DNA from: a virus | Lineage: Duplodnaviria > Heunggongvirae > Uroviricota > Caudoviricetes | Strand: one strand, 5' to 3' | Virus record (IMG/VR): IMGVR_UViG_2648501873_000005 | DNA: 36,416 bases | In this document: positions 1 through 6,807 of the stretch, one piece after another | Numbering within the stretch: position 1 is the first letter of the stretch | Layout of the letters: each line of letters begins with the position of its first letter | Made by a program: the position numbers and the translations under genes | The notes under the pieces: model-generated | The model's input: only the letters and a program-made list of their open reading frames with translations | The model's database searches: none | Told to the model about the DNA's origin: nothing

Positions 1-822
1 ATGAAACTGGAAGATTTACCGAAATACTACTCCCCAAAATCCCCTGGCCTGACCGATGCATCGGCCTCAACGTCAAAAGATGCGCTGAGTATCACTGATG
101 TGATGGCCGCGCAGGGCATGACACAGAATCGGGCTGAGATGGGGTTTTCTGCGTTCCTGGGGAAAATGGGCATCAGTATGAATGACAGGGCGCGGGCAAC
201 AGAATTACTGGCAGATTATGCACTCAGTCGGTGCGATCGTGTGGCGGCGTTGAGAAAACTTCCGGCAGAAATAAAACCGGTAGTGATGCGCATTATGGCT
301 TCGTATGCGTTTGAAGATTATGCCCGTAGCGCGGCGAGCAAAAAACAGTGCCCCTGCTGTCACGGAAAAAAATTTATTGAAAGCGAGGTTTTTACAAACA
401 AGATCCAGTATCCGGATGGTAAGCCACCAGTGTGGGCAAAGTGCACAAAAGGCGTGTATCCGTCTTACTGGGAAGAATGGAAAAAAGTCAGGGAGGTGGT
501 AAAAGTTGCCTGTCCGGAGTGTGGCGGAAAGGGTGAGGTTTCCACCGCCTGTAAGGATTGCCGTGGGCGTGGTGTCGCCATTCATCGTGAAGAGTCGGTA
601 AAACGTGGTATGCCTGTTATCAGAGATTGCCAGCGTTGTGGTGGTCGTGGCTGTGAAAGGCTGCCATCAACGGAGGCATTTAATGCCATATGCAAAGTGA
701 CGAGTGCTATCACGCTTGATACGTGGAAAAAATCAGTGAAACGCTTTTACGATACGTTGGTGGTTCGGTTTGACATTGAAGAGGCATGGGCGGAGCGGCA
801 GTTAAAGAGGGTAACGCGATAG
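1..822 (+). CDS. Late-gene antitermination protein Q-like, with four DnaJ-type CxxCxGxG zinc-finger motifs; may be 5'-truncated by the window edge
   Basis: 273-aa ORF starting at base 1. Motifs CPCCHGKK, CPECGGKG, CKDCRGRG and CQRCGGRG are visible. A lambda-like pR' and terminator follow immediately. Family assignment is from memory of lambdoid Q proteins. Confidence 0.65.
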   Translation: MKLEDLPKYYSPKSPGLTDASASTSKDALSITDVMAAQGMTQNRAEMGFSAFLGKMGISMNDRARATELLADYALSRCDRVAALRKLPAEIKPVVMRIMASYAFEDYARSAASKKQCPCCHGKKFIESEVFTNKIQYPDGKPPVWAKCTKGVYPSYWEEWKKVREVVKVACPECGGKGEVSTACKDCRGRGVAIHREESVKRGMPVIRDCQRCGGRGCERLPSTEAFNAICKVTSAITLDTWKKSVKRFYDTLVVRFDIEEAWAERQLKRVTR

Positions 823-827
823 TGTTG

Positions 828-855
828 TTGATTTTTCCCGAATCTGTGGTAAATT
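828..855 (+). promoter_or_regulatory. pR'-like late promoter (-35 TTGATT, 16-bp spacer, -10 TAAATT)
   Basis: TTGATT at 828-833 and TAAATT at 850-855. The downstream string TAAATTTGCTCTAACGATGGG closely resembles the lambda pR' initial region TAAATTTGACTCAACGATGGG as I recall it. Confidence 0.55.
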
Positions 856-903
856 TGCTCTAACGATGGGCGTTTTATGCCTGACGTTAGAAGATTTTTT
901 ACA

Positions 904-926
904 CCCCGCCGCCTGGCGGGTTTTTT
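904..926 (+). terminator. tR'-like intrinsic terminator
   Basis: GC-rich hairpin CCCGCC-GCCT-GGCGGG followed by TTTTTT, about 70 nt downstream of the putative pR' -10. Confidence 0.6.
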
Positions 927-1048
927 ATGACTGAAATCGCGTCAGTACAGTAAACGCGCTGGTGGCGGTGAATACCTGTCTTTCAGCTTGCTGGCTTTTT
1001 CGACAAGAGTTATTGGTGTGTCACGTTAACCGGAAAAGGGAAAAAGAC

Positions 1049-1246
1049 ATGCTAAAACAGCAGGATATGACAGAAACCGCCAGAGTGGTGTTTAATGAAT
1101 TAAGCGTTACCGAACCGGCGACAGTCGGGGAGATAGCGCAGAATACTTACCTTTCACGCGAACGCTGCCAGTTAATACTGACCCAGCTGGTTATGGCGGG
1201 TCTGGCAGACTATCAGTTCGGTTGTTACAGACGCCTTCCGCAGTGA
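1049..1246 (+). CDS. Small hypothetical protein (65 aa)
   Basis: ATG at 1049 preceded by AAAAGGG. The stop lies inside a hairpin plus U-tract. The longer track ORF from 962 has no ribosome-binding site. Confidence 0.4.
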   Translation: MLKQQDMTETARVVFNELSVTEPATVGEIAQNTYLSRERCQLILTQLVMAGLADYQFGCYRRLPQ

Positions 1247-1258
1247 AGGCTTTTTTAT
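1233..1258 (+). terminator. Intrinsic terminator-like hairpin
   Basis: GCCTTC-CGCAGT-GAAGGC followed by TTTTTTATTT. Confidence 0.45.
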
Positions 1259-1396
1259 TTGTGGTAAATGGGCGGCTGGTGGGTGTTAGGGGCACCCACC
1301 AGCCATCTGCTCATGCGTTGGGTTCACAAGCAAACCTCAGGCCCACTGCTTTGCGCAAAAGCAGAATGAGCCTATCAGAGACAGGCTTAATGATCC

Positions 1397-2446
1397 ATGC
1401 TTAATACTGTAAAAATATCCAGTTGTGAGTTAATCAACGCCGACTGCCTGGAATTTATCCGGTCGTTACCCGAAAATTCTGTTGACCTGATAGTCACGGA
1501 CCCGCCGTACTTTAAAGTGAAGCCTGAGGGCTGGGATAACCAGTGGAAGGGCGACGATGATTACCTGAAGTGGCTGGACCAGTGTCTGGCGCAGTTCTGG
1601 CGGGGGCTGAAACCTGCCGGAAGTCTTTACCTGTTCTGTGGTCATCGCCTGGCATCTGATATCGAAATCATGATGCGTGAACGCTTCAGTGTGCTGAACC
1701 ATATTATCTGGGCGAAGCCGTCCGGACGCTGGAACGGATGCAACAAGGAAAGCCTGCGGGCGTATTTCCCCGCCACAGAGCGCATTCTGTTCGCGGAACA
1801 TTATCAGGGGCCGTATCGTCCGAAAGATGCCGGGTATGCGGCGAAGGGCAGTGCACTGAAACAGCATGTGATGGCCCCGCTGATTTCTTACTTTCGTGAT
1901 GCGCGCGCGGCCCTGGGGATAACGGCAAAACAGATTGCAGATGCCACAGGAAAGAAAAACATGGTGTCGCACTGGTTCAGTGCCAGTCAGTGGCAGCTAC
2001 CGAACGAAAGCGATTATCTGAAATTACAGTCGCTGTTTGCCCGGGTGGCAGAAGAGAAACATCAGCGCGGTGAACTGGAAAAGCCCCACCACCAGCTGGT
2101 GGATACGTATACGTCACTGAACCGGCAGTATGTGGAGCTGCAGAGTGAATATAAGCATCTGCGGCGGTATTTTGGTGTGACGGCGCAGGTGCCGTACACG
2201 GATGTGTGGACACATAAACCGGTGCAGTTCTATCCCGGGAAACATCCGTGCGAAAAACCGGCAGAAATGCTGCAGCAGATAATCAGCGCAAGCAGTCGTC
2301 CGGGTGACCTGGTTGCAGATTTTTTTATGGGCTCAGGTTCAACGGTAAAAGCTGCACTGGCGCTCGGGCGTCGTGCGATTGGCGTTGAACTGGAGACCGG
2401 ACGTTTTGAGCAGACAGTCAGGGAAGTTCAGGATTTAATCGTTTGA
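1397..2446 (+). CDS. DNA N6-adenine (or N4-cytosine) methyltransferase, orphan phage type
   Basis: 349-aa ORF with the catalytic motif IVTDPPYF (DPPY) near the N-terminus. No adjacent restriction endonuclease gene. Confidence 0.8.
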   Translation: MLNTVKISSCELINADCLEFIRSLPENSVDLIVTDPPYFKVKPEGWDNQWKGDDDYLKWLDQCLAQFWRGLKPAGSLYLFCGHRLASDIEIMMRERFSVLNHIIWAKPSGRWNGCNKESLRAYFPATERILFAEHYQGPYRPKDAGYAAKGSALKQHVMAPLISYFRDARAALGITAKQIADATGKKNMVSHWFSASQWQLPNESDYLKLQSLFARVAEEKHQRGELEKPHHQLVDTYTSLNRQYVELQSEYKHLRRYFGVTAQVPYTDVWTHKPVQFYPGKHPCEKPAEMLQQIISASSRPGDLVADFFMGSGSTVKAALALGRRAIGVELETGRFEQTVREVQDLIV

Positions 2447-2495
2447 AACGGATGAGATTGCAGAATTAATTACGCACCATTATTATTCTGCTTCC

Positions 2496-2571
2496 GGCCC
2501 TTTAGCTCAGTGGTGAGAGCGAGCGACTCATAATCGCCAGGTCGCTGGTTCAAATCCAGCAAGGGCCACCA
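2496..2571 (+). tRNA. ileZ: tRNA with anticodon CAT, Ile2 (lysidine) type
   Basis: Hand-folded cloverleaf: acceptor GGCCCTT/AAGGGCC, D-stem GCTC/GAGC, anticodon loop CTCATAA, T-loop GGTTCAAATCC, 3' CCA. Closely resembles E. coli tRNA-Ile2 (ileX) as recalled. Confidence 0.85.
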
Positions 2572-2578
2572 TCACATA

Positions 2579-2655
2579 CCGCCATTAGCTCATCGGGATA
2601 GAGCGCCAGCCTTCGAAGCTGGCTGCGCGGGGTTCAAGTCCCCGATGGCGGTCCA
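2579..2655 (+). tRNA. argN: tRNA-Arg, anticodon TCG
   Basis: Acceptor CCGCCAT/ATGGCGG, D-stem GCTC/GAGC, anticodon stem CCAGC/GCTGG with loop CTTCGAA, T-arm CGGGG-TTCAAGT-CCCCG, CCA end. 5' boundary uncertain by 1 nt. Confidence 0.8.
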
Positions 2656-2668
2656 TTATCTGCATCAT

Positions 2669-2712
2669 GCGTTGTTAGCTCAGCCGGACAGAGCAATTGC
2701 CTTCTAAGCAGC
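2669..2712 (+). pseudogene. Degenerate or truncated tRNA-Arg(TCT)-like 5' half
   Basis: Good acceptor 5' strand, D-arm GCTC-AGCCGGACA-GAGC and anticodon loop CTTCTAA, but a weak anticodon stem and no recognisable T-arm or acceptor 3' strand downstream. Confidence 0.45.
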
Positions 2713-2904
2713 TGTGGTTGCACTCCTGTTGTTTCTGGTGGTGATGGTGGACTTCAGCAGCCGGATAATGTCGGTGCTGTCTGATGGTGTTTTGGTGGCG
2801 GGTGTGTGGTTGTTGCTTTCCCGTTGCTGAAAAAGAAAGCATCAGGCGATTAGCAGGGTATCAGTTACCCGTTGAAATTTTTAAATACCTCACAATTCCA
2901 CAGC

Positions 2905-3108
2905 TTGATGATTGTCTGGCTGCCGGAGAATTTGTTAAAAATTACATCGCATGGTGAATCCCCCTCAGCGGCGGGGCATCTGGCAAAGTGTATGATCCAG
3001 AGAACATGCAAATTCAGTAGACAGGCTGAATTTACCGGGAGGCCCCTGGCACCATGCGACAGACAGAAATTAGGCTATACTTCAGCCCCTCTCCGGAGGG
3101 GCTTTTCT
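2905..3108 (+). repeat. Copy 1 of a diverged direct repeat of about 200 bp, ending in a terminator-like hairpin
   Basis: Blocks shared with copy 2: TTGTCTGGC..TTTGTTAAAAA..TCGCATGGTGAATCCCCCT, ACCGGGAGGC.C..GGCACCATGC, and the identical hairpin GCCCCTCTCCGGAGGGGC followed by a T-run. Confidence 0.6.
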
Positions 3109-3371
3109 GTGCAGGATGTGTCACAGTTTCCTGAATTCTGAGTACTGTCCTGTTACTCAGGGTGCTATATTTTCTGACGTGATGAAAGTCTGCCGGAAGG
3201 CGGAACGTATCGGAAATGACCCAGTAGAGAAAACGTTGACTCAGATACCGATGCTGAGTTACCGGGAAACCGGCATCACATGACCGCTATCCTTCCAGGC
3301 TCGCTCCGGCGGGCCTTTTTACTGCAGAAAACAGTTTTCCCGTAAAATGCCACGTTGCTCATAATTCAGGC

Positions 3372-3570
3372 TGGCGATTATTGTCTGGCCGGCGGGAAGT
3401 TTGTTAAAAAATTTCGCATGGTGAATCCCCCTGTGCGGAGGGGTAATCAGCGAGTAGGTATATGGGATAATCGCGGATTCAGGTGCTGGTACTGAATTCA
3501 CCGGGAGGCACCCGGCACCATGCAATGGCACATAGCGCCACTCTCCAGCCCCTCTCCGGAGGGGCTGTTT
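3372..3570 (+). repeat. Copy 2 of the same diverged direct repeat
   Basis: Same conserved blocks and the identical GCCCCTCTCCGGAGGGGC hairpin at 3548-3565. Confidence 0.6.
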
Positions 3571-3601
3571 ATATTGATTTTGTCAGATGTGAGTAAACTG
3601 C

Positions 3602-3937
3602 TTATGGACTTTGTTGTTTTAGCCCATAAGGACATATTTGCAGAGTGCAACGGTTATTAAAGCATTCATTCAATACGTTATCTGTATTTGTAGGGCATTC
3701 CTGGCTGTTTTTGATTAAATTCCAGAATGTTTTATTGAATGGTACTACGTTGTAAATGGTTACAGGTAGCACTTTGTTATTGAGCATGATGCCTGTGTGA
3801 GTCAGTGTAAATATACTTTCAGGAGGTAAGAAAGCATCCGATTGATACCAGATTATTAATTTTATTTTACTCCATATGACTGAAAAAGATATTCCGCATG
3901 ATGGCTGGATAACTGTATCAATCACAATCCACTTCAT
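3602..3937 (-). CDS. Hypothetical protein (111 aa) in an AT-rich island
   Basis: Minus-strand ORF with AAGGAAAC ribosome-binding site 6 nt upstream of the ATG. The surrounding 3600-4180 region is visibly AT-rich against a roughly 50-55% GC background. No recognisable family. Confidence 0.4.
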
Positions 3938-4197
3938 TTAGTTTCCTTGTTTATGCCTTGCTGGTGATGTTCTGAAAAGTATAAATGATATTTTTGATTG
4001 TAAACCATAGAGCAGAATTATTTTTCTGATGTTGTTTATTGTTTATTTAAATGCAGGGTGGTTTATATCTCGTCTTGTAGTTTATCCATGCATATCTGCT
4101 TGATGATGAGGTTTTTATTTAAGGTATGGTTTTGTGTTTTTTCTGTATTACATGTCAGGTATTTTAAAGAATCATTTTTCAGATGGTGGAAAGAACC

Positions 4198-6092
4198 ATG
4201 GCATTTAAACACTATGATGTTGTCAGGGCGGCGTCGCCGTCAGATCTTGCGGAAAAGCTGACACATAAACTGAAAGAGGGCTGGCAGCCGTTTGGTAGTC
4301 CGGTGGCCATAACCCCTTATACCCTGATGCAGGCGATTGCAGCAGAAGGTGATGTGGTCGTCAGTGGTGCAACTGAGCCGGAGTGGTACTACGTCATCGT
4401 ACTGGCCGGGCAATCCAATGCCATGGCTTACGGTGAAGGGCTTCCGCTTCCGGATTCTTACGATGCGCCCCACCCACGCATTAAGCAACTGGCCCGTCGC
4501 AACACAGTGACTCCCGGTGGTAAAGCATGCGCATTTAACGACATCATTCCGGCAGACCACTGCCTGCATGATGTTCAGGATATGAGCGCACTGAATCATC
4601 CGAAGGCAGACCTGAGCAAAGGGCAGTACGGCTGTGTCGGCCAGGGCTTACATATTGCCAAAAAACTGCTTCCGTATATCCCGAATAACGCGGGGATCCT
4701 GCTGGTACCATGCTGTCGTGGTGGTTCGGCATTCACCCAGGGCGCGGAGGGGACATTCAGTGCGGACACGGGGGCCAGCCAGGATTCGGCACGCTGGGGT
4801 GTGGGTAAACCGTTATATCAGGACCTGATCGCACGCACCAAAGCGGCATTACAGAAGAACCCGAAAAATGTGTTGCTGGCGGTGTGCTGGATGCAGGGCG
4901 AATTTGACATGAGCGCTGCCACCTACGCACAGCAACCGGACCTGTTCACGGCCATGCTGAAGCAGTTCCGTACTGACCTTTCCGGATTTAACGCGCAGTG
5001 CCATGGCGGCAGTGCTGCAGTTGTACCGTGGATTTGTGGCGACACGACGTATTACTGGAAAAACACATACGGCACACAGTATGACTCCGTCTACGGCGCG
5101 TACAAAAACAGGGAGAGCGACAACGTTTTCTTTGTGCCGTTCATGACCGACGGTAACGGCAACAACACGCCCACCAACTTACCGGCAGAAGACCCGGATA
5201 TTGCTGATGCAGGTTATTACGGCGCGCAATCCCGTAGTAATGGTAATTGGGTATCGTCAAATCGTCCGACACATTTCAGTTCATGGGCGCGCAGGGGCAT
5301 TATTTCGGATCGCCTGGCAACCGCTATTCTGAACGCAGTTGGTCGAACCAGCGCCTTCATCAGCGGTACCGCACCGGAGATTAAACCCTCGCCCGGCGGC
5401 GACACGCCATCGGGGCCGTCTGATGGTGACACATCCGTTCGTACAGTCTCCCTGCTGCCGACAGCCGGAGAGGCTGCTGCGCAGGGCTGGACCATCACCG
5501 GCGGCAGTGTTGCGCTGGAAGATGGTGTGTTTAAGGTTACCAAGCAGAGCAATAAAACCTGGTCCCTGATGCATCCGGTGGATGACGCAGTCTCCCTGCT
5601 GACACGGGGTGGCAGACTGAGCTGTAAGTTTCGACTGTCAGGCGCACTGACCAACAACCAGTTCGGTCTGGGAATTTATCTGTATACCGATGTAGCGTTA
5701 CCTGACGTCGTGGCGATGACCGGGACTGGTAACCCGTTCCTGATGTCGTGGCGATGACCGGGACTGGTAACCCGTTCCTGATGTCGTTCTTCACCCAGAC
5801 CACAGACGGCAAACTGAATCTGATGCATCACAAGAAAGCCGGAAACACAAAGTTGGGCGAGTTCGGGAATTACAGTAACGACTGGCAGACGCTGGAGCTG
5901 GTGTTCACCGCCGGCAGTGCCACGGTTACTCCGAAACTGAATGGAGTGGCTGGCCCGGCATTCCAGGTCATAAAAGACAGTCTGACACTGGGGCTGAATG
6001 CGCTGACGCTGACGGATATTACCAAAAATGCAGCGTATGGCGTTGAGATAGAAAGTCTGGTGCTGGAGATAAATGCACCGGCATCATCATAA
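4198..6092 (+). pseudogene. nanS-p: NanS-p-like esterase (DUF1737 N-domain plus SGNH/SASA sialate O-acetylesterase domain), frameshifted
   Basis: N-terminus MAFKHYDVVRAASPSDL and SASA-like block VIVLAGQSNAMAYGEG. The reading frame breaks at a 38-bp tandem duplication at 5707-5782, so the gene appears as two track ORFs (4183-5757 and 5748-6092). Family assignment from memory. Confidence 0.7.
5707..5782 (+). repeat. Perfect 38-bp tandem duplication (2 copies) inside the esterase gene
   Basis: GTCGTGGCGATGACCGGGACTGGTAACCCGTTCCTGAT occurs twice consecutively. 38 is not a multiple of 3, so it causes a frameshift. Confidence 0.9.
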
Positions 6093-6168
6093 AAAGTGAG
6101 CCAGTCAAATGGAAGGTATCGTTAAACTCACCGGTAGTGTCAGTGGGTCGTCTGAGATGCCTGCATGA

Positions 6169-6207
6169 GTTATCAGAGCCATCAGTACTTAACTGGTGGC
6201 TTTTTTT
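6169..6207 (+). terminator. Terminator-like hairpin upstream of the holin
   Basis: Imperfect stem GCCATCAG/CTGGTGGC followed by TTTTTTTATT. Confidence 0.35.
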
Positions 6208-6242
6208 ATTGTTGTCAGCTTCCGGATAACGGGAGACGGGGT

Positions 6243-6458
6243 ATGTACCAGATGGAAAAAATCACAACAGGTGTGTCATACACCACGTCAGCGGTGGGAA
6301 CGGGCTACTGGTTCCTGCAGTTGCTGGACAGGGTTTCCCCGTCTCAGTGGGCGGCAATAGGCGTGCTGGGGAGTCTGCTGTTTGGGCTGCTGACATATCT
6401 GACTAACCTGTATTTCAAAATCAGAGAGGACCGTCGTAAGGCTGCACGGGGAGAGTAA
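6243..6458 (+). CDS. S: Class II holin / pinholin, phage 21 S-like, with dual-start motif
   Basis: [71 protein letters not shown]. Two Met codons 3 codons apart (typical antiholin/holin dual start), two transmembrane segments, basic C-terminus. Resembles S21 as recalled. Confidence 0.85.
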
Positions 6459-6462
6459 TTCA

Positions 6463-6807
6463 ATGACTCAAAACTATGAACTGATTGTGAAAGGGATCCG
6501 CAATTTTGAGAATAAAGTTACGGTAACTTTAGCGTTACGGGACAAAAAACGCTTTGACGGTGAAATTTTTGACCTGGACATCTCGCTGGACCGTGTTGAA
6601 GGTGCCGCGCTGGAGTTTTATGAGGCAGCAGCCAGAAGGAGCATCAGACAGGTCTTCCTGGATGTTGCTGCCGGGTTATGTGAAGGGGATGAGCAGTCGC
6701 CGGAAAAGCGCCCCGTAATTTTAGAGGCGCAGGATGTGTTGATAACCTACAGAGGAAAACTACCGGGAATAATTACGGGTTCTCTGAAGAGTCCGCCGAA
6801 ATGGTAA
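6463..6807 (+). CDS. Hypothetical protein inserted between holin and endolysin, possibly YdfR/DUF1327-like
   Basis: 114-aa ORF with GGGGAGAG ribosome-binding site. Position matches ydfR in the K-12 Qin prophage; sequence identity to that family is unverified. Confidence 0.5.
   Translation: MTQNYELIVKGIRNFENKVTVTLALRDKKRFDGEIFDLDISLDRVEGAALEFYEAAARRSIRQVFLDVAAGLCEGDEQSPEKRPVILEAQDVLITYRGKLPGIITGSLKSPPKW

Follow-up and report, generated by a model that had tools for sequence, protein, structure and literature searches.

The stretch of DNA analysed here, hereafter the window, is the 36,416-nucleotide record IMGVR_UViG_2648501873_000005 of the IMG/VR collection. Very probably, it corresponds to the late region of a non-Shiga toxin (Stx) lambdoid prophage with a cargo ('moron') slot between the late antiterminator gene Q and nanS-p, and this slot carries small RNA (sRNA) genes of the STnc100/EcOnc27/PasD superfamily together with iraL, which encodes an RssB anti-adaptor, as lysogen-expressed regulators. 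The 1.9 kb of the window that we tested are 100% identical to the chromosome of uropathogenic E. coli (UPEC) EcPF7, and the closest characterised relative of the window prophage is the potB prophage of CFT073. The components of the slot are all catalogued or experimentally characterised already. Our additions are a third sRNA unit, which is diverged and unannotated, the modularity of the 3′ ends within the family and a near-invariant linkage between iraL and one sRNA copy. Coordinates are collected in Table 1.

The initial annotation had described two diverged direct repeats of about 200 bp in the slot and had proposed sRNA genes as one possible reading, with an Rfam scan to decide. Both repeats are indeed present. 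In the scan, both matched the curated sRNA family STnc100 (RF02076) over the full model length (138 and 132.5 bits for units 1 and 2), well above the Rfam gathering score of 47 bits used here as the criterion of membership. However, the units number three, since a further copy with its own terminator (unit 3) had been missed. At 30 bits, unit 3 is not a member of STnc100 by the Rfam criterion, and we treat it as a diverged relative in the STnc100 superfamily, as is PasD2 of enteropathogenic E. coli (EPEC), which scores 41.4 bits against the same model. As already seen in the first reading, two of the units share an identical hairpin with a U-tract; the 18-nt sequence GCCCCTCTCCGGAGGGGC occurs exactly twice, at 3085 and 3548, with a T-tract after each. 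In the terminator scan, each of the three units closes with a G+C-rich hairpin that has a T-run behind it; the scan returned nine terminator-like sites in the region as compared to 1.6 expected from shuffled sequences. The repeats thus belong to an sRNA family, and are not tRNA-gene remnants or generic intergenic elements widespread outside prophages. Indeed, Zhu, Shabalina and Storz describe the family as prophage-associated, with PasD and STnc100 sharing an ancestor and lying between Q and the sialate esterase gene (10.64898/2026.05.13.724894).

Homologues of the units have been studied as RNAs. In strain EDL933, 11 STnc100 copies are transcribed and one of them, STnc100_4, was verified by Northern blot (PMC5331693). 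The STnc100 copy downstream of stx2B overlaps the Hfq-bound sRNA EcOnc27/sRNA103 (PMC12711010; PMC7873438), and EcOnc27 is visible on Northern blots (PMC7873438). PasD1 and PasD2 of EPEC are Hfq-dependent RNAs detected by RIL-seq, in which interacting RNAs are ligated and sequenced, and the stability of PasD depends on Hfq (PMC8550237). The window units share with EcOnc27/sRNA103 of Stx2 phages their strand and their slot, which separates the late promoter from the lysis genes, and unit 1 has a 3′ linker similar to that of the copy of Stx phage 933W. They differ in that the 933W copy is single and scores 207.7 bits, whereas the window has three tandem units with the lower scores given above. 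Units 2 and 3 also carry linker and terminator modules unlike the 933W type. PasD1/PasD2 of EPEC E2348/69 (EcOnc13 in enterohaemorrhagic E. coli, EHEC) belong to the same superfamily and start with the same 5′ motif, GCAUGGUGAAUCC. The PasD2 locus also has the same order of elements, namely a DUF3927 open reading frame (ORF), an sRNA gene and nanS-p. In contrast, the 3′ third of PasD is different, including its proposed UGUGAG seed, which is present in none of the three window linkers.

In an alignment of the units with the copies of 933W and ATCC 25922 and with E2348/69 PasD2, a conserved -10-type element was observed 7 nt upstream of a conserved GCATGGTGAATCC. Most copies have it as TGTTAAAAA and unit 3 has it as TGCTATATT, so that TGnTAAAAA or TGnTATATT is found at homologous positions across the units; the predicted extended -10 is at 2932-2940 in unit 1 and at 3163-3171 in unit 3. 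The 5′ end of PasD2, located at NC_011601 741157 from RNA-seq coverage and Northern size (PMC8550237, Table S6), falls exactly on the G of the conserved GCAUGG in the alignment. By homology to this mapped end, we placed the predicted 5′ ends of the three window RNAs. The three units have a common predicted fold in which a closing helix, GCAUGGUG/CACCAUGC, surrounds three to five hairpins and is followed on its 3′ side by a single-stranded linker of 20-27 nt and then by the terminator. The z-scores of the minimum free energy (MFE) folds were -2.6 for unit 1, -3.3 for unit 2 and -2.4 for unit 3. With nine family members, RNAalifold gave 25 core pairs, seven of which show changes on both sides, i.e. 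compensatory changes. Binding of CsrA to GGA motifs of the core was also considered; these motifs are partly inside stems, and the corresponding loops read as GNRA tetraloops in the MFE fold of unit 3.

The same comparison separated two parts of the RNAs. Across the STnc100 superfamily, the first ~110 nt, corresponding to the structured core, are common, while the last 40-60 nt, corresponding to linker and terminator, are of unrelated types. The 3′ module of unit 1 resembles that of the 933W copy, that of unit 2 resembles those of ATCC 25922 and PhiR5_1, and that of unit 3 is unique. From these alignments, it looks as if 3′ modules have been exchanged between copies of the superfamily.

Alternatively, the repeats might act only in cis, as terminator or insulator modules or as leaders within the late operon, and have no role in trans; their sole task would then be to stop transcription from the tRNA and cargo promoters before it enters nanS-p and the lysis genes in the lysogen. 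The late-operon strand does carry a tandem row of three strong intrinsic terminators immediately upstream of nanS-p and the lysis cassette, a strict scan gave no consensus sigma-70 promoter on the plus strand, and the function of STnc100 is described as unknown in the literature (PMC12370729). However, a terminator alone would need neither the conservation nor the compensatory changes seen over the ~110-nt structured core upstream of it. In addition, the homologues are discrete Hfq-associated RNAs as detected by Northern blot, RIL-seq or crosslinking and analysis of cDNAs (CRAC), and the mapped PasD2 5′ end stands on the conserved GCAUGG, 7 nt after the conserved extended -10. A purely cis-acting role is therefore very unlikely in our view.

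Several points nevertheless weigh against reading the units as trans-acting sRNA genes. The 5′ ends of the window RNAs are placed by homology only. A generic promoter scan found no plus-strand promoter in 2400-4300, and the proposed sRNA promoters are extended -10 elements with weak -35 hexamers. Reported targets of STnc100-type RNA are limited to indirect effects of overexpression (PMC7873438). Pairing of the linkers with the start regions of iraL or nanS-p was also considered and rejected: duplex energies were within the shuffle distributions, with 0.12-0.73 of the shuffles at least as stable, and the linkers thus have no significant complementarity to either start region. Finally, unit 3 is under the Rfam gathering threshold and was found in only five near-identical records of the phage collection, from which selection cannot be judged.

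These last two features are also those expected if only units 1 and 2 were functional, unit 3 being a pseudogene decaying after recombination between prophages. Unit 3 moreover lacks the conserved GGUGAAUCCCCC and GGAGGCACCC loop motifs. On the other hand, it has the best -10 of the three units and retains an 8-bp terminator hairpin followed by a T-run, and two hairpin loops of its MFE fold read as GNRA tetraloops (GGAA and GAAA). Its fold z-score, given above, also argues against decay. Compensatory changes were found both in its closing helix, where three are seen by eye and two appear in the RNAalifold table, and in an 8-pair helix (alignment columns 78-85/98-105), where there is at least one more. 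Taken together, this makes decay of unit 3 an unlikely explanation, though one that deserves some weight. We also considered unit 3 as a PasD homologue. This was rejected because the five phage-collection records include no PasD-carrying phage and because unit 3 has its core in common with PasD2 while its 3′ module differs.

Three further observations concern the sRNA genes. First, two variants located after stx2B have been linked to haemolytic uraemic syndrome (HUS), a T/C single-nucleotide polymorphism at +90 and a T deletion at +103 (PMC12711010). In 933W these variants correspond to ~4792-4806, within 1-2 nt of the extended -10 and of the T-run that precedes the predicted GCAUGG start. On this reading, the two variants would affect the promoter and leave the STnc100/EcOnc27 RNA itself unchanged. 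Second, a hydrophobic DUF3927 ORF is located 40-90 nt upstream of an STnc100 or PasD gene in three different prophages (2714-2830 in the window, 23054-23185 in CFT073 and 2959-3117 in E2348/69). The sRNA might be co-transcribed with this ORF or derived from its 3′ untranslated region (UTR). Third, RefSeq leaves the sRNA genes unannotated and places across unit 2 a pseudo-CDS on the minus strand, named 'incomplete hypothetical protein' (3406-3531). The pseudo-CDS is wholly inside the unit and is most likely an annotation artefact arising from the unannotated sRNA gene, so that the annotation can be corrected here.

The second regulator of the slot is encoded on the opposite strand. The initial annotation had noted an AT-rich island with a 111-aa reverse ORF preceded by a good ribosome-binding site and containing several cysteines, and had left the conservation of the protein to a homology search. 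The island has a G+C content of 33% as compared to ~51% in its flanks, the ribosome-binding site is AAGGAAAC and the protein contains five Cys residues. No Pfam match was obtained. However, residues 1-110 matched the NCBIfam model NF007393, 'anti-adapter protein IraM', at 162 bits for a curated cutoff of 121. The protein is identical to IraL of CFT073 (WP_000871291.1 in EcPF7 as well as in the CFT073 potB prophage), with a single nucleotide difference between the two coding sequences; the ORF is thus conserved, and it is iraL. It also has the two properties by which iraL was defined previously (PMC4045071), namely an identity of 95% or more to CFT073 iraL and conservation of the promoter region. 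Indeed, the published sequence from rapid amplification of 5′ cDNA ends matches the window minus strand 3970..3939 at 31 of 32 positions (PMC4045071). The -10 and -35 hexamers were read off the sequence.

Hryckowian et al. (2014, PMC4045071) showed that IraL of CFT073 (c1429) binds to RssB and makes RpoS more stable in log phase, and found the gene to be enriched among UPEC, Shigella and prostatitis isolates. Its mRNA increases after a shift to 37 °C (PMC12890032) and IraL levels are higher in a fur mutant (PMC7157518). The CFT073 protein for which RssB binding and RpoS stabilisation were demonstrated is identical to IraL of the window. The two loci are also alike in position: each lies in a lambdoid prophage with the Q/tRNA region on one side and nanS-p on the other, and each is directly convergent with an STnc100 copy. 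They differ in content. In CFT073, Q is followed by IS200C, the three tRNAs are intact, STnc100 is present in one copy and nanS-p is truncated, whereas the window combines 2.5 tRNAs and a methyltransferase gene with three sRNA units and a nanS-p that is frameshifted, though full-length. Between Q and the tRNAs, CFT073 carries the IS200C transposase gene and an STnc490 RNA (146 bits) at 21568-22159. Together with the intact tRNAs, this shows that the same slot differs between close relatives.

The window protein is 62% identical over 107 aa to IraM of K-12 (b1160, adjacent to the e14 prophage), and IraM as contained in PDB entry 8TWD was also a match. Both belong to NF007393, have four conserved C-terminal Cys and are encoded by AT-rich, horizontally acquired genes. 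The genomic context is however different, and the DNA similarity (71%) ends 2 nt past the start codon. Since it does not reach upstream, the iraL and iraM promoters are unrelated. Moreover, IraL is reported to differ from IraM in its interaction with RssB (PMC4045071).

The position of these regulators was compared with that of the toxin genes in Stx phage 933W. As proposed from the order of genes, the slot is equivalent to the stx site, and an alignment to 933W, which had been suggested for placing the cargo boundary, sets it at 2710 on the left and 4197 on the right. Window positions 2345-2710, including the ileZ region, are 91% identical to 933W in BLAST, with homology ending in the argO anticodon loop and resuming at 4197, one base ahead of the nanS-p ATG. 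No AB5 toxin genes had been recognised in the slot; consistent with this, BLAST gave no match to 933W stxAB in the window, and the slot ORFs are those of DUF3927 and IraL. Whereas 933W has stxAB, STnc100 and AsxR between these boundaries, the window has the DUF3927 ORF, three sRNA units and iraL. In the Rfam scan, the 933W STnc100 copy starts 75 nt after stxB, and AsxR follows right behind on the opposite strand. The sRNA is therefore part of the shared slot and does not replace the toxin. Accordingly, the proposal that the slot carries a different payload holds for stxAB versus DUF3927 and extra sRNA units, and for AsxR versus iraL. It does not hold for the sRNA element as such, of which 933W has a family member. 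An anti-sRNA partner of the AsxR or AgvB type (RF02703 and RF02702) was sought opposite the window STnc100 copies; no match was obtained at E ≤ 1 in window positions 800-6500, while the same search detected AsxR in 933W at 88.1 bits.

Distribution was determined in 5426 complete E. coli genomes at a query coverage of at least 80%. The 1.9-kb cassette (2400-4300) was found in 1008 of them, about a fifth. The iraL gene with its promoter (3590-4010) was found in 1440 genomes (range 1440-1446) and the junction of unit 2 with iraL (3416-3700) in 1419, so that ~98% of iraL-bearing genomes keep the convergent sRNA of unit 2 adjoining iraL. A unit directly convergent with iraL was present in all seven iraL loci inspected, window included. 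The other loci have either no annotated tRNA or one to three, and one or two sRNA units above threshold. In contrast, an Rfam scan of the K-12 iraM locus detected no STnc100 copy, showing that the sRNA linkage is specific to iraL. Within the searched library, no paper brings up iraL along with STnc100, EcOnc27 or PasD, and the Pas paper mentions neither IraM nor IraL.

Such a linkage raises the question of a functional dyad, in which the sRNA level would be coupled to iraL expression, either by convergent transcription of the two genes, unit 2 and iraL, into one hairpin or by an overlap of the iraL 3′ end with the sRNA. There are precedents in the same slot, since the dyads EcOnc27/AsxR and EcOnc06/AgvB have been described in EHEC prophages (PMC7873438; Tree et al. 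2014). As in the window, an STnc100-type sRNA there lies tail-to-tail with a lysogen-expressed regulator, the difference being that the window partner is the protein gene iraL and not an anti-sRNA. The 3′ ends of unit 2 and iraL are ~25-35 nt apart, the hairpin at 3546-3567 is the first stable structure past the iraL stop codon, and the conserved junction counted above is also in line with a dyad. However, this hairpin has no U-tract on the minus strand, so that termination of iraL is not predicted there. The linkage may also reflect the recent spread of one cassette, given identities of 95-100%. In addition, the window has no AsxR/AgvB homologue and shows no seed complementarity to the iraL start region. 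Coupling through the convergent 3′ ends is thus quite improbable, and we give no more credit to the wider idea that unit 2 and iraL form a dyad, as opposed to a merely linked cassette. If it were true, sRNA transcription or the sRNA terminator would set 3′-end formation and stability of the iraL mRNA, or the reverse, and an Hfq-dependent prophage sRNA would be tied to RpoS proteolysis. The three units, with a common core and different 3′ linkers, would be a cassette system for swapping sRNA seeds, and cargo of this phage slot would have RpoS as a recurring target, through StxS in Stx phages and IraL in the window.

Overall, we favour a model in which the slot would hold two kinds of lysogen-expressed regulator, the tandem prophage sRNAs and iraL. 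For the three window units, expression, Hfq binding and targets, like the 5′ ends, are inferred from homology and sequence features. Each unit would be a transcription unit of its own, started from the extended -10 promoter at the conserved 5′ motif shared with PasD. It would yield an RNA with a closed multi-hairpin core, a single-stranded linker of ~20-27 nt that differs per unit, and an intrinsic terminator with a U-tract. Bound by Hfq, the units would most likely regulate by base pairing, with three different sets of targets. Their terminators would probably have a second role in the lysogen, that of shielding nanS-p and the lysis genes from upstream transcription, and after induction the Q-modified polymerase would read through them. 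On the opposite strand, iraL, transcribed from its own sigma-70 promoter, would make RpoS more stable while cells grow. The toxin slot of Stx phages would then be a general site for lysogen-expressed regulators, in which a uropathogen-type prophage places an RpoS-raising protein together with Hfq-type sRNAs. Both stress resistance and fitness in the urinary tract are affected by the level of RpoS. Neither the corrected annotation nor the linkage of iraL with one STnc100-type sRNA changes current understanding.

Table 1. Features of the window from Q to the start of the lysis cassette
Feature	Position	Strand	Evidence
Late antiterminator Q, with DnaJ-type CXXCXGXG zinc-finger region	1-822	+	PF03589, 166 bits; PGAP 'antitermination protein'
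pR′-like promoter (TTGATT 828-833, 16-nt spacer, TGG-TAAATT 847-855), putative	828-927, with tR′	+	Read by eye
tR′ terminator with T-run	905-920	+	Terminator scan
N6/N4 DNA methyltransferase	1397-2446	+	PF01555, 147.9 bits
tRNA, CAU anticodon, ileZ type (tRNA-Ile2)	2496-2571	+	ARAGORN; Rfam tRNA, 72.5 bits; PGAP tRNA-Ile
tRNA-Arg (UCG), argN type	2579-2655	+	ARAGORN; Rfam tRNA, 58.4 bits
5′ half of argO-type tRNA-Arg(UCU), cut after the anticodon loop; left cargo boundary	2669-2710	+	Alignment with 933W argO and third CFT073 tRNA
DUF3927 hydrophobic micro-ORF, 38 aa	2714-2830	+	PF13064, 42.6 bits; PGAP WP_000226111.1
STnc100-family sRNA gene, unit 1	2919-3112	+	RF02076, 138 bits, E = 2.4e-31; predicted RNA ~2949-3106; terminator 3084-3103
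Diverged third unit (unit 3)	3148-3323	+	RF02076, 30 bits, E = 0.001; predicted RNA ~3178-3321; terminator 3297-3316
STnc100-family sRNA gene, unit 2, convergent with iraL	3388-3576	+	RF02076, 132.5 bits, E = 6.1e-30; predicted RNA ~3416-3575; terminator 3546-3567
AT-rich island with iraL; right end is the right cargo boundary	3577-4197		Composition; 933W homology resumes at 4197
iraL, RssB anti-adaptor of the IraM/IraL/RssC family, 111 aa	3602-3937	-	NF007393, 162 bits
iraL 5′ UTR and sigma-70 promoter	3939-4004	-	Start 3970; -10 TACTTT 3981..3976; -35 TTTACA 4004..3999
nanS-p (DUF1737, SASA esterase and DUF6645 domains), pseudogene	4198-6092	+	Pfam; PGAP 'frameshifted'
P21-type class II holin, start of lysis cassette	6243-6458	+	PF04971, 112.5 bits

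The slot is set in the late-region backbone recognised in the initial annotation, with Q, pR′/tR′, the methyltransferase gene, the tRNAs, nanS-p and the lysis genes in this order, all of which were recovered (Table 1). The pR′-like promoter is under the threshold of the promoter scan. From this promoter to the tR′ hairpin, transcription would yield a leader RNA of ~65-70 nt. The StxS sRNA of Stx phages is made at the equivalent position. Window positions 828-927 have no DNA similarity to 933W. Between tR′ and the methyltransferase gene lies a 65-aa ORF (1049-1246), a hypothetical protein in RefSeq, with a weak match to a TrmB-like winged helix (18 bits, under the cutoff) and its own terminator at 1233-1250 in the terminator scan.

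The third tRNA had been described as degenerate, and indeed only its 5′ half is conserved. It matches argO of 933W and CFT073 as far as the anticodon loop and diverges beyond; neither ARAGORN nor the Rfam tRNA model detected a complete cloverleaf. The DUF3927 ORF that follows had been overlooked. Its score is above the Pfam gathering score of 25, yet the match covers only profile positions 11-39 of 53.

The frameshift in nanS-p is due to a perfect 38-bp tandem duplication at 5707-5782 (GTCGTGGCGATGACCGGGACTGGTAACCCGTTCCTGAT, twice), which divides the gene into 4198-5757 and 5748-6092. RefSeq marks nanS-p as 'frameshifted' in EcPF7, and close relatives, Ecol_316 among them, have the gene intact. 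The spacer between nanS-p and the holin gene (6096-6248) gave no BLAST match to the PasA-bearing spacer of E2348/69, and no PasA/PasC homologue was found there. The spacer contains a strong plus-strand hairpin with a T7 run (GCCATCAGTACTTAACTGGTGGCTTTTTTT, ~6178-6212), which might terminate nanS-p or form the 3′ end of some other small RNA.

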